From: a virus
Lineage: Duplodnaviria; Caudoviricetes
DNA length: 64,000 nt
Reading direction: 5' to 3' (one strand)
Virus record (IMG/VR): IMGVR_UViG_2974601178_000001
Coordinates: 56,296 to 120,295 of that record
Below, one piece after another: positions 43,744 through 63,560 of this stretch. Made by a program: the position numbers and the translations under genes. The notes under the pieces are model-generated. The model saw only the letters and a program-made list of their open reading frames with translations, made no database searches and had not been told where the DNA came from. Within the stretch, counting starts at the first letter, position 1, and each line of letters opens with the position of its first letter.

Positions 43744-44364
43744 TTAACCCTCACTTGGTGTAACTAGATCTACGGAACTGACAGCAGCATTACCAACTGC
43801 TATTTGACTTGTTATAACTGCATTTTTGTCTATCTCAGTCATACCTTTTGTGGTTTGGTTATTCCCCGTTGTTTTGTCAGCCACGTCATCCTTGGTTTCT
43901 TCTGAGGGAGATTGTACCAGTACCAAAGAAGCTTTTGAAACAAAAGTAATATCTTGGAAAGATAGAGAAACTCTCCACCCTCCCAAACCTTCTGCCTTAC
44001 TTTTACTTGCTGTGAAATTGGTAATAATACAATTCTCAATAACAATATTATCAGCTACCACTGTCAGAGGTCGAATAGGGGTTTCTTCTCTGAGATTATT
44101 AACTTGGCTAATCCAATCGGAAGTTTCTAAAAAGGTATTACCTTCCTTGTAAATACCTACATTAGTAATAACACCATCAAAAGAAATATCCCAGTTATCT
44201 AAGTGGTAATTATCTGTTAGACTTTTACCAGATTCTACCCTAGATCTGGTTGCTCTCGCTGAACGGGATATTCTTATATCTGTGGTAGCTGCCATGCGGT
44301 ACAAAGCAGATTCCTTGTCTTCTACCGCTGGAGCTATAAAGTAAAATACGCTCTGCTTTGCCAT
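43744..44364 (-). CDS. Tail tube initiator / Dit-like protein
   Basis: VESG...TDN, SFQDI; follows tape measure. Confidence 0.7.
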   Translation of the reverse strand: MAKQSVFYFIAPAVEDKESALYRMAATTDIRISRSARATRSRVESGKSLTDNYHLDNWDISFDGVITNVGIYKEGNTFLETSDWISQVNNLREETPIRPLTVVADNIVIENCIITNFTASKSKAEGLGGWRVSLSFQDITFVSKASLVLVQSPSEETKDDVADKTTGNNQTTKGMTEIDKNAVITSQIAVGNAAVSSVDLVTPSEG

Positions 44365-44365
44365 T

Positions 44366-47300
44366 TTATTTTCCTCTTGCTTGGGTTGCTACGGACTCTT
44401 TGCCAGCAAGTGCTCGCTTGAGTTCATCCATTTGACCGTTATTTATCACAATATTATTGGTAACTGTAGTACCAGTTGGAGAACCTGCTCTACCTACTAA
44501 AAGATCTCCTACCAGCCCTCCTCTACCTTCTGTGGTAGCTCCTACAAAAGCACCTCGTACCATCTTATTCTGCATACTACCTATAGCTTTAAGTTTATCC
44601 CACCAACCTAGTTTATCAAACTGTTCTTCGGTCATGTTTCTCATATCTAAGTTATTACCTTTAGGTTTAAGGTTATCCTTCCTGTAAAACTTATCACCTA
44701 TTCTAGTAAAATCACTTGTAGTACCATCGAGAATGTTTATTTGCTTGCCATAAGATGCTTCCAGTGCCCCTATCTTGGTATCATCCATCATAGAATATAA
44801 TTCATCCATTGCTGCAAGTGCTAAAGTTACAGGCAAAAACATTCTTGTCCATGCTGCAGCAGCAAGGTAGCTTTGTGTGGTTAGTGCCCCTACAAAACTT
44901 CTAACCATAAATATAGCCTTTACACCAACTAAAGTATAGAAGTTATCTATGGCAAGTTTCATAACAGGTTCTAATATTTTCAACCCTGTGGCAATAGCAT
45001 TAAACACATCACCAAATATTTTACCTAGTTTCTTAAGTTGTGATCCTGAGTTTTCAAAGATTTCAGATAATGTTCCGTAAAGGTTAGATAACCCCTCTTC
45101 AAAACCTGAGTTGAAAATAGTTTTGCCAGCGCGTTGCATTCCAGTCATAAATTGACCTTCTTTAACACGTAACCCTTGTAAGGCTAGTGCATATGCTCCG
45201 CCTTCAAGGGCAGCTTTACGGAATTCTTTAGCTACTTTAGGAAGTACTTCTGATGAGGCTAGTTGCCCTTGTTCCATAAGCTTAAATAGTTCTGCTTCAG
45301 TGACTCCTAAAGCCCTAGTGAATATTTGTACCGCCGTTGTATTCAAGTGTGATCGTTACTCACACCCCGCACCACTATGTGCAGCTTACACTTTCATGTA
45401 AGACTAGATCATATCATAACCTTCAACACTATTTGTTAAGGTCTCTACCGTTTCGAAGTCACTTGACCCCTACGCTTATGCTGATCGTTGAACGCTAATC
45501 CCAATTGTAATTTTTACTAACATGTTTAAATGTTTTTCTCTGTTTAATAAAGCGTAATACACCTTGTCCTAATGAGTATTTACTATCGATAACCTTGTCA
45601 CTTAAGCCTTCTTGCAAGTCCTTGCATATCAAGTGTACAGTATCCGAGTCCAAACTCTTATTAACAGGTTTTATGTTGTATAGATCACTTATCTCGCACC
45701 AAGTTGTTTTTGATCTAACATCATAAACCAAGGACTTTTTAATCCCAAGTTGTTTTGTTATCTTAACTTGTGATAGCCCTTTTTCAAGGAGAGAACAAAT
45801 ATTATGTATCAGTTCTTCTGGGTGCACGTTATTAGGGTTACCTTCCCCTTTACGTCCTACACAAATATCACCGTATAATAACCCATGTAAATTATTTTCA
45901 GCTACAGTACACCACTCTAGATTATCTAGGTCATTGTTTTGTCTGTTACAGTCTTTATGATTTACACAAGGCTTGTTTTCTGGGTTTGGGATGAAAGCTT
46001 TTGCTTTTGCTCTATGTACAGATACGCTCTTATTTTTACCTTCCTCTGGATTCCAGCTACTTACTCTGAGGTATCCATCCTTATCTGAGTAAGGTTTTAA
46101 TACATTACCTGAATAACACGATTTAATAACACCTTCCGTATTAATCATAATAAATTCATAATCTGGTACTACTTTAAACATTTAGAATCTCCTATTATTG
46201 GAGATTGGGATTCTTCGCTGCGGATTACCCAATCTTTACAAATTTTTACTATACCTAACACATTACTGTTAGCCCTATCGTATGTTACCATCAATAGTTA
46301 GTATTGTAAAGCTTAAGGGTGTTCCCGCAATTAGATAGATTTTCTGTAAGAGTTTCCTACTTACAGGGGCTACATTATTAACCCGGCAAACTGTCGCCTA
46401 GCTGATTTTTGAGTTCCTCCAGTAAAGCTAATAAAATCAATAACTTAGCTAAACACCTACACCTTCTCAGGGTAGCCTGATCATATCATAACCCTCGCCA
46501 CTCTACGTTAGGGTTCCTGCCGTTTCTTCCTATAAATAGGTTCTACTATACTCGCTTACCAAAACTAATCTTTGTTAGTTTATCTGCTTTCTATGATCGA
46601 TGAACGCTAATCTACTTACATTGCAGATCATTCGCTGCTGATTGTCAATATTTTCAGAATTTTAAGGGGTCGCTACTATGTCACCATGTAGTATCCTATC
46701 TGAAACCTAGCTTGAGTTCCCAGCAATTAAACAGGTTTTTCGATAATAATTTCTTATTAAAGGGCCAAAGAACTTTTAGCCATTACTTTCCCTTTTGACA
46801 TCCAATACCTTCGAACAAGTACGTTACCTCTTGCCCCGCAAATCCTTATTGCAGCTCTATATCGCTATAGAAGTTGAGACCATATCTTCACCCTCAGCCT
46901 TACCTGTTTGGGGTTGTGCGCTTCCACTCACTTGAGTGTACAGATTTCATAAACCTCTAAGGTTCGTTTATCTTGGTCGTTACACCTTGGAAAGAATTAC
47001 TTCTAACCCTTGGCTCGGTATAATCTACAGGAGACTTCCGCCGAATTCACACAATTTGTTCATGCTTATTACTAAGCAGCCAGACAATAATCGTCTATCT
47101 GGATCAAGGCTTTCTGACTTCGCTTCATGCTTTCATCATCTACCTTCAATGCTGTCCCGAACATACTCAATCCTGTGAATAAGTCCTCTTGTTCCGTTTG
47201 GGAAATTTTACCTTTTGATGCAAACTTAAACTTAACGAAAGCGTCTGTAGTATCTTTTAAACTAAGACCCATTTCATCAACTATTCCATTTATGAACATC

Positions 47301-48430
47301 ATATCCTTTGCAGCAGCTTCCGAACTACCACTTGCAGCCAACATAGAAGCTTCCATCCCCTGAAAGTCTTGCCCTACCCGCTTAATAGCACCCGTACCTT
47401 CAAAAATAGCATACAAGCTTGCATAGCTGCGGATCATATTCCTTGTCGAATCGGCTAAACCCTTTTGTGCAATGTTCGTTTTCTTTAAGCTTTTCCTGTA
47501 ACGCGCCATACTCTCTCGTGTATCAGACATTGACTTACGTAAGTTCTGCAATCCTTTAAGATCCTTCTTATCGACTAAACTTTGTATCTCCCTTTCATAC
47601 TTGCCGCTTTCACCCATACGCACTGCAAGTTTAAACCCTGCTGACCTACGAATTCTTTCCGCTTGTGTTTCCATTGCAGCGTTATGCTTCTTTAAGGCTT
47701 TCGCTCTTTTTTGCAAAGACTCTCGGATAGAAGCTTCCTCTTTCCTACGATCATCTTCTCGTTGTTTACGATTGGCAGCTCTTCTCTTTTGAGCGTCTTC
47801 CCAAGCCTTTCTTTTTTGTTGGGGAGAGGATGAAAGCTGTCCTATAGGATCGGAAGTCTTAGTATTCTGCTTTTCAAGAGATTTATAATAACCTCTCATA
47901 TCCTTTATTTCTTTATTCTCTTTTCCATAAGAATCTAGGATATGTTTTCTAGTTTTAAGCATCTCCTTTCTTTGAGAGAGTTCACTTGCTTTCTTGGCGG
48001 CTGCGGTGTTCTTTTGAACCTTTGCTAAATCCAATTCCCTTTTTAGTTCTTTATCCTGCCTAGATGAGATAGCTTTCTCTATTGCTGCTTGTTCTCTTTG
48101 CGACTTAGACAGATTACTATAACCCCTTAGTCGATCCTTTTCCTTTTTGTCCTTTTTGTAGAGAGAAACCCTTTTATCAAAATCCTTTTTTAAATTATTC
48201 TCTTGTTTGACTCTTAATGCTTCCATTTCCTTTTGAGTCTTAGCTTTACGTTTCTGAGAATTCTCCCAAGATTTCCTTTTATCCTTTTCACTTTTTACAA
48301 GTTTCTCGTCCCTTTTTATCTGTTTCTTACCTACACTTTCTAAAAACTTGTCTAAATCATTAGCACCCTTTTTAGCTTCCTTAGAATCAGTGAGGAACTT
48401 TATTACGAATTCTTCAATTATATTAGACAT
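44366..48430 (-). CDS. Tape measure protein, spliced: join(48430-47097, 46802-46778, 46419-46381, 45334-44366), 788 aa
   Basis: Removing three introns restores ALIQ-MMSKGKVMA-EELKNQLGDSLPG-AVQIF, the conserved tape-measure motif, in frame. Confidence 0.92.
45335..46380 (-). mobile_element. Group I intron 3 of tape measure gene (1046 nt, HNH-encoding)
   Basis: Exon ends in U, intron ends in G; P1 U.G; P AAUUGCGGGAA, Q AAUCCGCAGC, P7 GAUCA/UGAUC. Confidence 0.92.
45495..46181 (-). CDS. Intron-encoded HNH homing endonuclease
   Basis: VHR..A.AFIPNPENKPCVNHKD...NN...NLEWCT..EN. Confidence 0.92.
   Translation of the reverse strand: MFKVVPDYEFIMINTEGVIKSCYSGNVLKPYSDKDGYLRVSSWNPEEGKNKSVSVHRAKAKAFIPNPENKPCVNHKDCNRQNNDLDNLEWCTVAENNLHGLLYGDICVGRKGEGNPNNVHPEELIHNICSLLEKGLSQVKITKQLGIKKSLVYDVRSKTTWCEISDLYNIKPVNKSLDSDTVHLICKDLQEGLSDKVIDSKYSLGQGVLRFIKQRKTFKHVSKNYNWD
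46420..46777 (-). mobile_element. Group I intron 2 of tape measure gene (358 nt, no ORF)
   Basis: U|...G boundaries; P AAUUGCUGGGAA, Q AAUCAGCAGC, P7 GAUCA/UGAUC. Confidence 0.9.
46803..47096 (-). mobile_element. Group I intron 1 of tape measure gene (294 nt, no ORF)
   Basis: P1 CCAGAU/GUCUGG; P7 GACCA/UGGUC; terminal G. Confidence 0.9.
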
Positions 48431-48489: not shown

Positions 48490-48756
48490 TTATTCTTTTG
48501 GCTTGGAATCTTCATATTGTGCAATTTCATAATCTTGATTCATGAGCATCTCCTCTTCAAAATGGAAATACTCTTTTATATCAGATTCGTGCATCAATTC
48601 CTTGAAACTTATTCCATAATTCTTCCATGTGTACTTGATAACCATATTTTGGTATAGTCTTTCTGGGTCTAAAGTGGATTCCTTTTCAACATGTTTATCT
48701 ACTATTCCTCGGTAGATTGACCTGTTTGCATCACTTTCTTCAACACTCCTCCCCAT
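48490..48756 (-). CDS. Tail assembly chaperone, second (GT-like) frame
   Basis: In -1 frame overlapping 48702-49166, upstream of tape measure. Confidence 0.6.
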   Translation of the reverse strand: MGRSVEESDANRSIYRGIVDKHVEKESTLDPERLYQNMVIKYTWKNYGISFKELMHESDIKEYFHFEEEMLMNQDYEIAQYEDSKPKE

Positions 48757-49166
48757 GACTTGGTTATAACGTTTTCTGTAAAAAAATCTTTAAAATTCTC
48801 CTCGAACAAGAAGAAGATGAATTCCATGAAAAGTGCTGGCTTGCCTCGGAAATCTTTATCCAAATCTTCAAAGCTATTAAATTGAACACCTTCATCATTT
48901 GTTGAACCCATCAACATTTTAGCAATCAGCTTATCAATTTCAGGCTTTTCCATATCCTCTGCAATAAGGCTCATGATATCTTTGAAAGTGTTTACTTTGT
49001 TAAATGTAGCGTAATCTTCATCAACATTCTTACTATCCAAAACTTCACCCATGATTGGTGCGATTGTTTTCAACAGTACACGACTACCCTTAAAGCATTC
49101 CCATGTACTCAATACTGTGATTGTGTAAGTCTTATCTCCGATTGTTTTCTTTCTCGTTGGTAACAT
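48702..49166 (-). CDS. Tail assembly chaperone
   Basis: Between tube and tape measure genes. Confidence 0.75.
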   Translation of the reverse strand: MLPTRKKTIGDKTYTITVLSTWECFKGSRVLLKTIAPIMGEVLDSKNVDEDYATFNKVNTFKDIMSLIAEDMEKPEIDKLIAKMLMGSTNDEGVQFNSFEDLDKDFRGKPALFMEFIFFLFEENFKDFFTENVITKSWGGVLKKVMQTGQSTEE

Positions 49167-49775: not shown

Positions 49776-51152
49776 TTAATTACCTAGTGTACCAGTGATT
49801 TCAATCATGTGGATAGCGCCTCGAAGGGTTCCTTTGAAACTCACTTGTTTAAATACGTTTGCAGCTTTATCGGCAGCGTTAATCTCAGATACACGAGGTA
49901 TTGTGATAGAAGTATTTGGTAAAAGGAAGTTATGGAAATCTTCTGACTCATATTGATTAAGTACTGTACGAACAGCACCACGAACTTTGTTCAAGCTTGT
50001 TTCATCAAATGCAAGACGACCATTCTTCTGACGTATCATCAGCTCAGTAGTAGTTGCTTCTAAATCAACTTGAAGGTTATCACGAGTAACAATATTCATT
50101 GTAAGCTCACCACTTGCCACTTTACCACCATAAGTGATAGAAGGGTTTGTGCTAAATGATGCACCGCTGATTTGAACCTTGTCGTAGAAGTTAACTTCAT
50201 TACTCTTCATGTTAGACACTTGAGTTGCTGTTAAATTTCCACCTGTTGCATTAAGTGCTGCTGGAACACCTGAAACAATACGAGCATGGTAAGTAACACG
50301 ACCAGTTGTAAATGTAGCAATCTCTGCTAAAGCTGCAACTTCTGGGTAAGTGTCTTCTGCTAAGTGGTGATACTCTGGCATAGTACGGAAGTATTGATTA
50401 TCTTTGACAGTTTTAACACTACCAGATAATACTGCTGCGTAAGCACCTTCTTCCTTTGTGGTATAACGGAATAGTTTGAAACGAGCTTCTACTTCAGCAG
50501 CTAACTCTTCAATAAAGGTTACACTCTTTTCTTCACTAGTTATATAGTACCATGAATCATCTTCAATTGCAATAGCTGCCAACATCTCTGCTGCAGACTC
50601 TTCAACCGCACCCGCAGAAGTAGATAAATTTAGAAGGTTGGTCACTGTGAACCAATCATCACCTACTTTATGAGAAAGAGTTAATATTGCGTCATTACCA
50701 GTACCTGTTACAGAAGCTGTAATTTTTGCATTAAGGTCTGCATTACCTGTGATAGCAGTGACTACTTGGTCAAGGATATCTTGCTTGGTTTCACCAGTAC
50801 CTGCTGTAACACTGATTTCTAATGCAGCGAGAGAACCTAGTGCATTAACTGTTACATTGTATTCTAAACCGTCTACAACGTCCTCTGTTACGTTTAAAAC
50901 AGTAGAAGCATTAGCACGACCTACTTTAATTGATTGTGGTCGAGGTGTCTGTGAGAAGCCGCCACGTAAAGCTTTATAAGCTGCATCATCTGCTGAAAAA
51001 CCATCTTCAAGCAAAGCATCTGCATCAGTGTAAGTACGAATACGTTCAGACCATAAATTGTGTTTTGCCGCAAACATGATACCTTGGAAACCTTGACGAC
51101 CTACTGTTGCCGTTTCCAAAGAAATATTCGCAATGGCTAATTGTACACTCAT
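49776..51152 (-). CDS. Tail sheath protein (DUF3383-like)
   Basis: FSQTPRP..IKVGR, GAIH...ITG. Confidence 0.88.
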   Translation of the reverse strand: MSVQLAIANISLETATVGRQGFQGIMFAAKHNLWSERIRTYTDADALLEDGFSADDAAYKALRGGFSQTPRPQSIKVGRANASTVLNVTEDVVDGLEYNVTVNALGSLAALEISVTAGTGETKQDILDQVVTAITGNADLNAKITASVTGTGNDAILTLSHKVGDDWFTVTNLLNLSTSAGAVEESAAEMLAAIAIEDDSWYYITSEEKSVTFIEELAAEVEARFKLFRYTTKEEGAYAAVLSGSVKTVKDNQYFRTMPEYHHLAEDTYPEVAALAEIATFTTGRVTYHARIVSGVPAALNATGGNLTATQVSNMKSNEVNFYDKVQISGASFSTNPSITYGGKVASGELTMNIVTRDNLQVDLEATTTELMIRQKNGRLAFDETSLNKVRGAVRTVLNQYESEDFHNFLLPNTSITIPRVSEINAADKAANVFKQVSFKGTLRGAIHMIEITGTLGN

Positions 51153-60792: not shown

Positions 60793-63560
60793 TCATCGGA
60801 TAGACTTGCGGTAAGATGTGTATGCTGTTGGGGAAGTGGTGTCTGGGAGGCTGTAGGCGCGGATTACCTTGTTGGAATTTAACACAGAGAAGGCATCACT
60901 GGTTGCATCTAACATATCATCCTTAGATCTTCTCATGTCTTTAGGTATCCCAGTGAAATTTTCAAGTTCCCCGAAGTAATCTTTATTCCAATCTGCCCTT
61001 ACATACTTAACTAGACCCGTTTCAGCGGCAATAGAGAAAGGCTGGAACCTGTCTACTTTCGCTTTATTGGTTTTTGTTGTAGTAGCCCTAAAACCTAAAC
61101 TAGTTAGTTCTGAAATGAAACCTTTTATATATCTTTGGGACGCAGGGTTGGGGTCTGTCGGTAAGTATATAACTACGCTATCTCCATACTGCTCTTTATC
61201 TTCGTATGCAGTCTTTATAATAAGATCTTCCACTTTCGCAGCAGAGAATCTTTCTCTTACTACATCTTCTACTACGTATTGCCAAGTTTTATCTAAAGAG
61301 GATTCTTGACTTTTACTCATAAGTACTCCTGCGGTATAATCAGGATTTCTAGCGTAACTACCTGAAGGAGAAGACGGATCATATTCTGTCCCAGCCAAAT
61401 CCCATGCTCTACACCTAGAGGCATTAGCAGGTAATTTATCTACAGGAGATAACCATTCTCGGTTAAAGTACATACAACCTGTTTCAGTGTTATGCCAACA
61501 ACCAAGAAGTAATTGCTTACGTTTTGCTTCTGGTAAAGAGTCAAGAGAGGACTTATAATCGATTTCAAGGTCTTGGAGAATTTTATTGTCTTCGATCGTA
61601 GACGGGATTAACGTATAAGTCTTAGCGTTCTTGTCAGGGAACTTTTTCTTCAACTCTTCTCTATCCCAATCGGAATGTAATACCCCACCAACCATAACAA
61701 AATATCTTATCTTACAGGCGAGTTCTTTATCAGGGTAGCCTTCCTCGTTAAGAAAAGGTTTTACCCAGTCGTACACAAAATGTCCACCGTCTGGATTAAG
61801 CGTCATACGAGCACAAGATTTAACTTTAGCTTTAGATCTAAGACGAGAACGTATTACATCGAAACAATACTCACTCTGTCTTTGAAATTCATCAAAGTAC
61901 ACTCTTGAAAGCTCAGCTCCGTACCCTATAATCATTTCAGATTATCAGACTATAACATCACTATCACTAGTGTCAGAAGATTTAGTCGTTGCGGGTGTAG
62001 TATTCATATTTTGCAGTGTTTTGTGAAGTATTAGATTAGATTCAAAAGTGGCTCCGTACCTTTTTAAATTAGTTTGGTTAGCTATGATATTTATAATAAA
62101 GTCGTATTGATCTTTCTTCAAAACTAAATGTTTCCCGAAGTAACTTAATTTATCTCTGGAAGAATAGTTAAGAGTAAGGGCATATCTTATACAATTTTTA
62201 TCTTTATGCACCCTACCACCAAAACATTTATGTATAAGGTTTATAGCAGTAGCTTGTGTTTCATGACTTACTATAGATAATCTAAATTCGACTAGACCTG
62301 TTTTCTTATTGAAGTAAGAGTTTAAACTTCCATCTCCATCAATATAACCTGCCATCCATTTCCTAGAAGGGAAATTTCTCTCTGGTGAGGTTTGTAATCT
62401 AGCTAACTGTATCTGTTTTCTTATAAGTTTTGTTTCTTCTTTAGTACAAAAAACTTTATCTAATTCTAATACTTTTTCTGCAACAGGTTTCTTTATTATT
62501 AAGTGATTCTTCACTTGTTGAATAAATTTTATAGCTTTTGAGCAGTTTAGTGTAACACAAAGGCAGCCTTTAGATTCAGTAACTTTAACATTGAATTCTT
62601 TAGCTAAATCATCTAAAACTTTCCTTCTTTTCTCTATCTGGTAGAGAGTGCATCTAATTTGTGAATAGTAACTATTTTCTGATCTTTTTGTGAATTGAAC
62701 ATCAAACGTACCATCTGCATCAAACAAACCTGCATAATATTTTATATTTTTAATCATCTTGAACTTCTGTCCTGTATTGGATTAATTTTCTACTTCCCTC
62801 GTGTTGCAAGAACAAGTCTTGTTTCCACGTTATTTACTTCTGATTTTACATTCCCAGTTATGTTAAGGAATCGGCATCTTTATCATGTTGTAGGTATGAG
62901 AAAGTTGATTTGGCTCCCGATGGGAAAGTTATCACGTGCTTTTGATAGTTTATGTGGGCCTTCCCTATAAACTTCCCTTCTTTTTTATGTCCTTGCGGAT
63001 ATTTTAAAAAAGGTTCGTACATTTTCAAGGCTTCTGGCCATAAATTTGTTTCTAGCTCTATAGTGGTATTACGAAAAAATACACTGAAGTAGAGTGGGTC
63101 ACCTACATACTTGAGATTATCAAATAGTATCGCCCATGTTTTACCCTTTATAATTTTATACTCGCTACAGTATTTCCACAGTTTCCTGTGTAATTGGACT
63201 ATATCTTCATCTTTTAAAAGATGCCTACCGTTTCAAACCACCAATAGCTTGTGGTCTTACAGAGCTACACTCATCACTCTTAGTCTCTTGACACAACGAT
63301 CATTAATCGCCTTTGTAACGGATTGCCTTGGAGTAGATACTCTTTAGGTTTCCCATTTTAGATAGGTTATTGTCATTCGTATCACTACGAAAGGGAGGCA
63401 ATAATTAACAACCTCCGCCGCCTCCACCGTAAAATATGAAATCTATTTCTTCACCTTTACCGTAAGCTAAGCCTTCCTCTGATAAGCCATCTGTTTTTAT
63501 AGAAACAAATTGTTGTTGCCTACCTTCCTGAGGTTTCATAACATTATTTTTCTTTGTCAT
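60793..63560 (-). CDS. terL: Terminase large subunit, spliced: join(63560-63411, 63145-62866, 61925-60793), 520 aa
   Basis: Splicing rebuilds Walker A FYGGGGGG|GKT and DADS-W-YGAELSRVYFDE; AWDLA and DDMLDA nuclease motifs. Confidence 0.92.
61926..62865 (-). mobile_element. Group I intron 2 of terL (940 nt, LAGLIDADG-encoding)
   Basis: P1 UUCCU/GGGAA with U.G; P7 GACUA/UAGUC; terminal G. Confidence 0.88.
61945..62757 (-). CDS. Intron-encoded double-motif LAGLIDADG homing endonuclease
   Basis: YYAGLFDADG and WMAGYIDGDG. Confidence 0.9.
   Translation of the reverse strand: MIKNIKYYAGLFDADGTFDVQFTKRSENSYYSQIRCTLYQIEKRRKVLDDLAKEFNVKVTESKGCLCVTLNCSKAIKFIQQVKNHLIIKKPVAEKVLELDKVFCTKEETKLIRKQIQLARLQTSPERNFPSRKWMAGYIDGDGSLNSYFNKKTGLVEFRLSIVSHETQATAINLIHKCFGGRVHKDKNCIRYALTLNYSSRDKLSYFGKHLVLKKDQYDFIINIIANQTNLKRYGATFESNLILHKTLQNMNTTPATTKSSDTSDSDVIV
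63146..63410 (-). mobile_element. Group I intron 1 of terL (265 nt, no ORF) inside Walker A
   Basis: P1 GGAGGU/GCCUCC; P7 GACUA/UAGUC; terminal G. Confidence 0.9.

Follow-up and report, generated by a model that had tools for sequence, protein, structure and literature searches.

The closest described counterpart of the locus reported here is the tape measure protein (TMP) gene of phage ICP1, whose transcript comprises four exons and three introns and whose splicing was demonstrated with RNA-seq, RT-PCR, and Sanger sequencing (Barth et al. 2023; PMC10448857). The middle TMP intron of ICP1 usually codes an HNH-3 HEG, and isolate M4 carries different HEGs in TMP introns 1 and 3 (PMC10448857). 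TMP introns have also been described in prophages of the B. cereus group, where the group I introns TMP-IVS1, IVS2, and IVS3a/b occupy three sites, and in L. delbrueckii phage JCL1032 (PMC2504315). Staphylococcus phage Twort has three group I introns in one ORF and displays exon skipping (Landthaler and Shub 1999, as cited in PMC3073962 and PMC11878797). The TMP introns of PMC2504315 and PMC10448857 make outdated the view, adopted in an earlier sequence-only reading of the locus, that phage introns mostly sit in genes of nucleotide metabolism or replication. In phages Moonbeam and KASIA, the genes with introns are terminase and polymerase, and TMP has none. We found no mention of TMP introns of Pseudoalteromonas phages in the literature, including PMC5498523, PMC10232697, and PMC10612066.

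The window (the whole stretch of DNA analysed) covers the rightmost 64 kb of a phage genome from IMG/VR that is 120,295 bp long and has direct terminal repeats. Its nearest cultured relatives are the Pseudoalteromonas phages HM1 (92% identity), H101, and PH357. Pfam matches and synteny reveal a tail module on the minus strand in the order tube, Phage_TAC_15, interrupted TMP, and Dit-like protein. The TMP gene was read from the sequence as four exons and three group I introns. The same sheath-tube-TAC-TMP-Dit-like order is found in the annotated Alteromonas phage PT11-V22 and in Felixounavirus JH2, and the putative sheath ORF of the window, which matched no Pfam family, was assigned by this shared gene order alone. 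The features of the locus are as follows, in the direction of transcription.

49776-51152, minus strand: putative sheath ORF, upstream of tube
48702-49166, minus strand: tail assembly chaperone (Phage_TAC_15, Pfam), just upstream of TMP
47097..48430, minus strand: TMP exon 1, 444 codons plus 2 nt (ORF list and translation)
46803..47096, minus strand: intron 1, group I, 294 nt, without an ORF (RF00028, 50.8 bits)
46778..46802, minus strand: TMP exon 2, 25 nt, coding (M)MSKGKVMA
46420..46777, minus strand: intron 2, group I, 358 nt, without an ORF (RF00028, 64.2 bits)
46381..46419, minus strand: TMP exon 3, 39 nt, coding EELKNQLGDSLPG
45335..46380, minus strand: intron 3, group I, 1046 nt, its ORF looped out of P6
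45495..46181, minus strand: putative HNH_3 homing endonuclease ORF in intron 3, 228 aa (Pfam HNH_3)
44366..45334, minus strand: TMP exon 4, 322 codons plus stop (translation)
43744-44364, minus strand: Dit-like tail protein, downstream of TMP exon 4

The sequence-only reading had given the coordinates, the intron lengths (294, 358, and 1046 nt), and the two micro-exons (25 and 39 nt) exactly to the base. Joining the exons yields a single ORF of 788 aa (88 kDa, pI 9.8) containing ..QMMSKGKVMAEELKNQLGDSLPGA.., in agreement with the proposal that splicing restores a conserved motif, and the reading frame upholds the claimed need for triple splicing, as the full-length 788-aa TMP requires all three introns to be removed. 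The predicted spliced junctions read CCAGAT|GATG, ATGGCT|GAGG, and CCGGGT|GCGG, and the predicted tryptic peptides spanning them in the TMP are ALIQMMSK, VMAEELK, and NQLGDSLPGAVQIFTR. A conservation ranking of the protein placed the intron cluster in its top-ranked 22-aa segment. If exon 1 is left unspliced, its ORF continues until a TAG at 47072 and encodes 452 aa with a pI of 9.9. In-frame stops lie 8 codons into intron 1, 6 codons into intron 2, and 0 codons into intron 3, which begins with TAA. Phage group I introns usually have such early stops in frame. The TMP introns described by Tourasse and Kolsto have the same habit (PMC2504315). An intein could be ruled out by the stop codons present in all relevant frames of the intervening sequences, and an assembly artefact by the recurrence of the same arrangement in independent isolates.

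We compared the introns with the Rfam covariance model for group I introns (RF00028), which has a gathering score of 50. Intron 2 scored 64.2 bits (E 5.7e-14), above the gathering score, and intron 1 scored 50.8 bits (E 6e-10), barely over it; these two were the sole matches in a gathering-threshold scan of the whole window. A permissive scan recovered the 5′ half (25.8 bits) and the 3′ half (24.4 bits) of intron 3 on either side of its ORF, both sub-threshold, and with the ORF deleted the core of this intron folds into a group I architecture like that of introns 1 and 2. The P1 pairings between exon and guide are CCAGAU/GUCUGG for intron 1, GGCU/GGCC for intron 2, and GGGU/GCCC for intron 3. 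The 5′ exon ends in a U opposite a guide G, and the intron ends in G, in all three window introns and in 12 of 12 introns across four phages; the exon-U/intron-G arrangement and the U.G pair in P1 noted in the sequence-only reading can thus be read directly in each of the three introns. The P7 strands are also as they had been described (GACCA/UGGUC in intron 1, GAUCA/UGAUC in introns 2 and 3). The 3′ ends of the introns run 37-52 nt beyond the end of the Rfam model, forming extra P9.x hairpins. Rfam alignments place inserts of 51-69 nt between P7 and the 3′ strand of P3, the position expected for P7.1/P7.2 of subgroup IA, and an alignment of intron 2 homologues has two conserved hairpins within this insert (columns 216-245 and 263-276). 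Judging by these scores, folds, and splice-site features, the three TMP introns are genuine group I introns, and they appear subgroup-IA-like.

All three junctions can be fixed from relatives in which the corresponding site is empty. PH357, in which the middle site alone is occupied, has contiguous DNA at junctions 1 and 3 (..CCAGAT-GATGTC.. and ..CCCGGT-GCAGTG..), and in IMG/VR locus L014, which shares intron 1 with the window at 98% identity, the DNA runs on across an empty site at junction 2 (..ATGGCA-GAAGAG..). The boundaries cannot slide because the flanking bases differ at each side. A 76-aa spliced peptide covering all three junctions was matched in one piece in 1,202 phage records, and these uninterrupted TMP matches include PT11-V22 (58% identity) and Felixounaviruses, in which the genes are annotated as tape measure genes. 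The same peptide gave a contiguous match to Pfam TMP_3 (PF20155) of 51.9 bits against a cut-off of 41, whereas the exons alone scored 32.4 and 18.7 bits. Exon 1 covers positions 4-99 of the profile and exon 4 covers positions 122-159; the 22 uncovered positions correspond to the 22 residues coded by the micro-exons, which supports the spliced product. The gene can be identified as a tape measure gene by its TMP_3 score, above the cut-off, and by its location between the chaperone and the distal tail genes.

Sequence variation among relatives points to selection on the introns and on the exons between them. Among four phage homologues of intron 2 (82-97% identical), 20 base pairs have compensatory double changes. 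Intron 1 has compensatory changes at 7 base pairs relative to its H101 homologue, and the ORF-deleted core of intron 3 shares 96 pairs with H101 intron E, of which 8 are compensatory and 0 are broken. In the micro-exon region of four phages, 9-14 of 66 nt differ between the more distant pairs (the window and HM1 differ at just 2), and the 22 encoded residues vary by at most one change, V to I. Nearly all of these differences are synonymous, suggesting selection on the spliced reading frame.

The loci of relatives were collected with an alignment query, as exon 4 alone matched only an HM1-like contig. Close relatives have six insertion sites within the same 64 coding nt, and ICP1 has a seventh. 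The six sites lie after CCAGAT (site a), ATGGCT (site b), GAAGAGCT (site c), AATCAGT (site d), TTACCT (site e), and CCGGGT (site f), and are occupied as follows.

Window: sites a, b, and f
HM1: sites a (with a 176-aa HNH ORF), b, and e
H101: sites a, b, c, d, and f (five introns)
PH357: site b and no other
L012: sites a and b (the latter with an ORF)
L013: site b (with an ORF)
L014: sites a, c (with an ORF), and e
L017: site b, holding a different intron
L019 and L020 (more distant): site f
L018 and L022-L024: no site occupied

The window is less extreme than H101 (L002, NC_029094; 3872-6361), in which TMP exons of 25, 8, 11, and 20 nt separate the introns and splicing gives one 738-aa ORF. 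The intron families at sites a, b, and c are each found with and without an endonuclease ORF. HM1 intron 3, at site e, is 73-80% identical to site-b introns over about 150-170 nt of the 5′ core; its site-b-like core is combined with a different guide, which indicates retargeting. Other group I introns of the same genome had no blastn similarity to the TMP introns and so gave no indication of spread within the genome. In multi-locus searches, Rfam passed over the PH357 intron (3526-3867 of L003), though it is 82% identical to window intron 2, and also the site-b introns of L012 and L013. We read these misses as filter losses and not as absence, since blastn and covariation show the introns to be intact, and intron counts from Rfam alone would undercount the TMP hotspot.

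The intron-3 ORF has a match to Pfam HNH_3 (PF13392, I-HmuI-like) at residues 60-97, scoring 31.7 bits where the cut-off is 24.8. It shares 61% identity with an H101 protein that carries the annotation "HNH homing endonuclease" and 34% with ICP1 hdgA, and on these grounds is a putative HNH_3 homing endonuclease. Its Shine-Dalgarno sequence, GGAG, sits in the 3′ strand of the P6a hairpin, where it would delay translation of the endonuclease. The HM1 copy of intron 1 (L001 2791-3321) contains a 176-aa HNH/HNH_5 endonuclease ORF that the window copy does not have. The 3′ 219 nt of the two copies are 99.5% identical, which suggests recent gain or loss of the ORF.

The TMPs of ICP1 and the window are homologous (43% identity over exon 4), and the order of the tail genes is the same; in both, the same conserved motif holds three group I introns, one of which carries an HNH_3 endonuclease. 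The three ICP1 introns are detected by Rfam in its TMP (gp81/gp79). By our reading of the ICP1 sequence, its intron 1 lies at site b, where the window has intron 2, and these two introns are 80-83% identical over about 110-130 nt. Unlike in the window, the other two ICP1 introns are placed after GAAGAACT (intron 2, site c) and CAACTGGGT (intron 3, the seventh site), the internal exons measure 8 and 16 nt compared with 25 and 39 nt, and the HEG is in the middle intron and not in intron 3. HEG content varies between ICP1 isolates, as it does among the relatives of the window. Splicing has been demonstrated experimentally for ICP1, whereas for the window it is deduced from sequence. The B. cereus prophage TMPs resemble the window in having several IA-type introns per gene, in frame, with early stops and conserved targets; their introns were retargeted by a changed P1 (compare HM1 site e), and one site can hold different introns. 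They differ in belonging to Gram-positive prophages with a different, larger TMP, and in having sites that are spread and not packed in 64 nt. Twort, as described in the papers that cite the original work, likewise carries three self-splicing introns of group I in one late gene, but they are mutually similar and exon skipping was observed, whereas the window introns are largely dissimilar (introns 2 and 3 are alike over just 48 nt, at 79% identity).

We propose that the TMP gene of the window contains three independently folding self-splicing introns, all of which are probably removed to make the tape measure protein (a probability of roughly 0.9). Mobile introns would have colonised the 22 most conserved codons of TMP in this Pseudoalteromonas myophage of ~120 kb. 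Each intron would fold alone within the late transcript of the tail genes, its guide sequence pairing with the last 4-6 nt of the upstream exon to form P1, with U.G at the splice site. Free guanosine would cut at the 5′ splice site, after which the 3′ U of the exon would attack past the terminal G of the intron. Only RNA without any of the three introns would code the 788-aa TMP, and the stops 0-8 codons into each intron would keep ribosomes off the ribozyme cores. In mixed infections, the HNH_3 enzyme of intron 3 may cut intron-less TMP alleles of related phages; repair would copy intron 3 into the recipient, and the two ORF-less introns within 64 nt could follow by co-conversion. The pile-up of introns may reflect conservation: no other TMP sequence is conserved across many phages, which would make this short stretch the best target for several independent lineages of introns and endonucleases. 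The case for homing, co-conversion, and clustering on a conserved target draws on the occupancy mosaic and on established knowledge of homing.

The same mosaic might be understood as an arms race of co-infecting marine phages, in which each intron destroys the recognition site of a rival TMP-targeting endonuclease. Introns, the ORF-less ones included, would then be kept as armour as well as being passengers, and the six to seven sites would represent successive rounds of attack and immunisation. We consider this conceivable but rather unlikely. It is far harder to credit that the triple interruption is regulatory or diversifying, whether because splicing times tail assembly, because the 39-nt exon is skipped, or because the 452-aa product has its own role. 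Skipping of this exon had been put forward as a source of isoforms in the sequence-only reading; 39 nt is indeed divisible by three, and exon skipping was reported between the three Twort introns of one gene (cited in PMC3073962), but the arithmetic conceals a cost, as the 13 residues lost lie in the family's most conserved stretch, and intron 2 does not closely resemble intron 3, unlike the similar introns of Twort. The 452-aa ORF does exist and is basic, as had been described, but nothing hints at a function, and a basic pI is common to it and the full-length TMP. Close relatives also vary freely, with 0, 1, 2, 3, or 5 introns at six sites, which makes a fixed regulatory design unlikely.

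We give the least credence of all to the idea that at least one intron no longer splices, leaving either a pseudogene or exon 1 and exon 4 polypeptides that act separately. In its favour, GenBank lists a pair of distinct proteins for the gene in both H101 and PH357, and the score of intron 1 is just at threshold; however, the helices are preserved by compensatory changes, and the micro-exons are in frame and near-synonymous in four phages, including cultured, plaque-forming isolates. Exon 4 has just a TTG start, located within the intron, and no evident ribosome-binding site for separate expression, and the homologous ICP1 transcript undergoes splicing (PMC10448857).

The GenBank records of H101, PH357, and HM1 split the essential TMP gene into a truncated "tape measure" protein and a "hypothetical protein"; in H101, the record has two small or HNH ORFs besides the truncated TMP and the hypothetical protein. 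Until splicing is taken into account, any analysis of tail length or of the proteome in these three phages will be wrong.

Further interruptions were observed elsewhere. The large terminase gene of the window looks split, at 63146-63417 and at 61945-62860 (both minus strand). Its glycine-rich Walker A region (..YGGGGGG / GKT..) is interrupted by a group I intron of 71 bits that the Rfam scan of the whole window had not detected, and a second intervening stretch has a LAGLIDADG ORF (61945-62757) ahead of a Terminase_6N/6C exon (60793-61935). The terL gene of ICP1 is likewise spliced (PMC10448857). Outside the window, the same genome has a group I intron of 90.7 bits at G000:C1:34890-35109 (plus strand; locus L005). 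The ORFs flanking it match the ribonucleotide reductase large-subunit barrel at profile positions 1-211 and 241-522, indicating that nrdA is also interrupted. In the IMG/VR relative L017, a group I intron of 88 bits lies at 2559-2848, about 4 kb upstream of TMP.

The window is a fresh example of a known TMP intron hotspot with an experimentally validated homologue in ICP1. With it, the hotspot extends to an entire group of Pseudoalteromonas and Alteromonas-type marine phages, with at least six interchangeable sites in 64 nt and up to five introns per phage. As a compact natural system, the locus lends itself to the study of how introns are retargeted, how homing endonucleases turn over, and how co-conversion proceeds.
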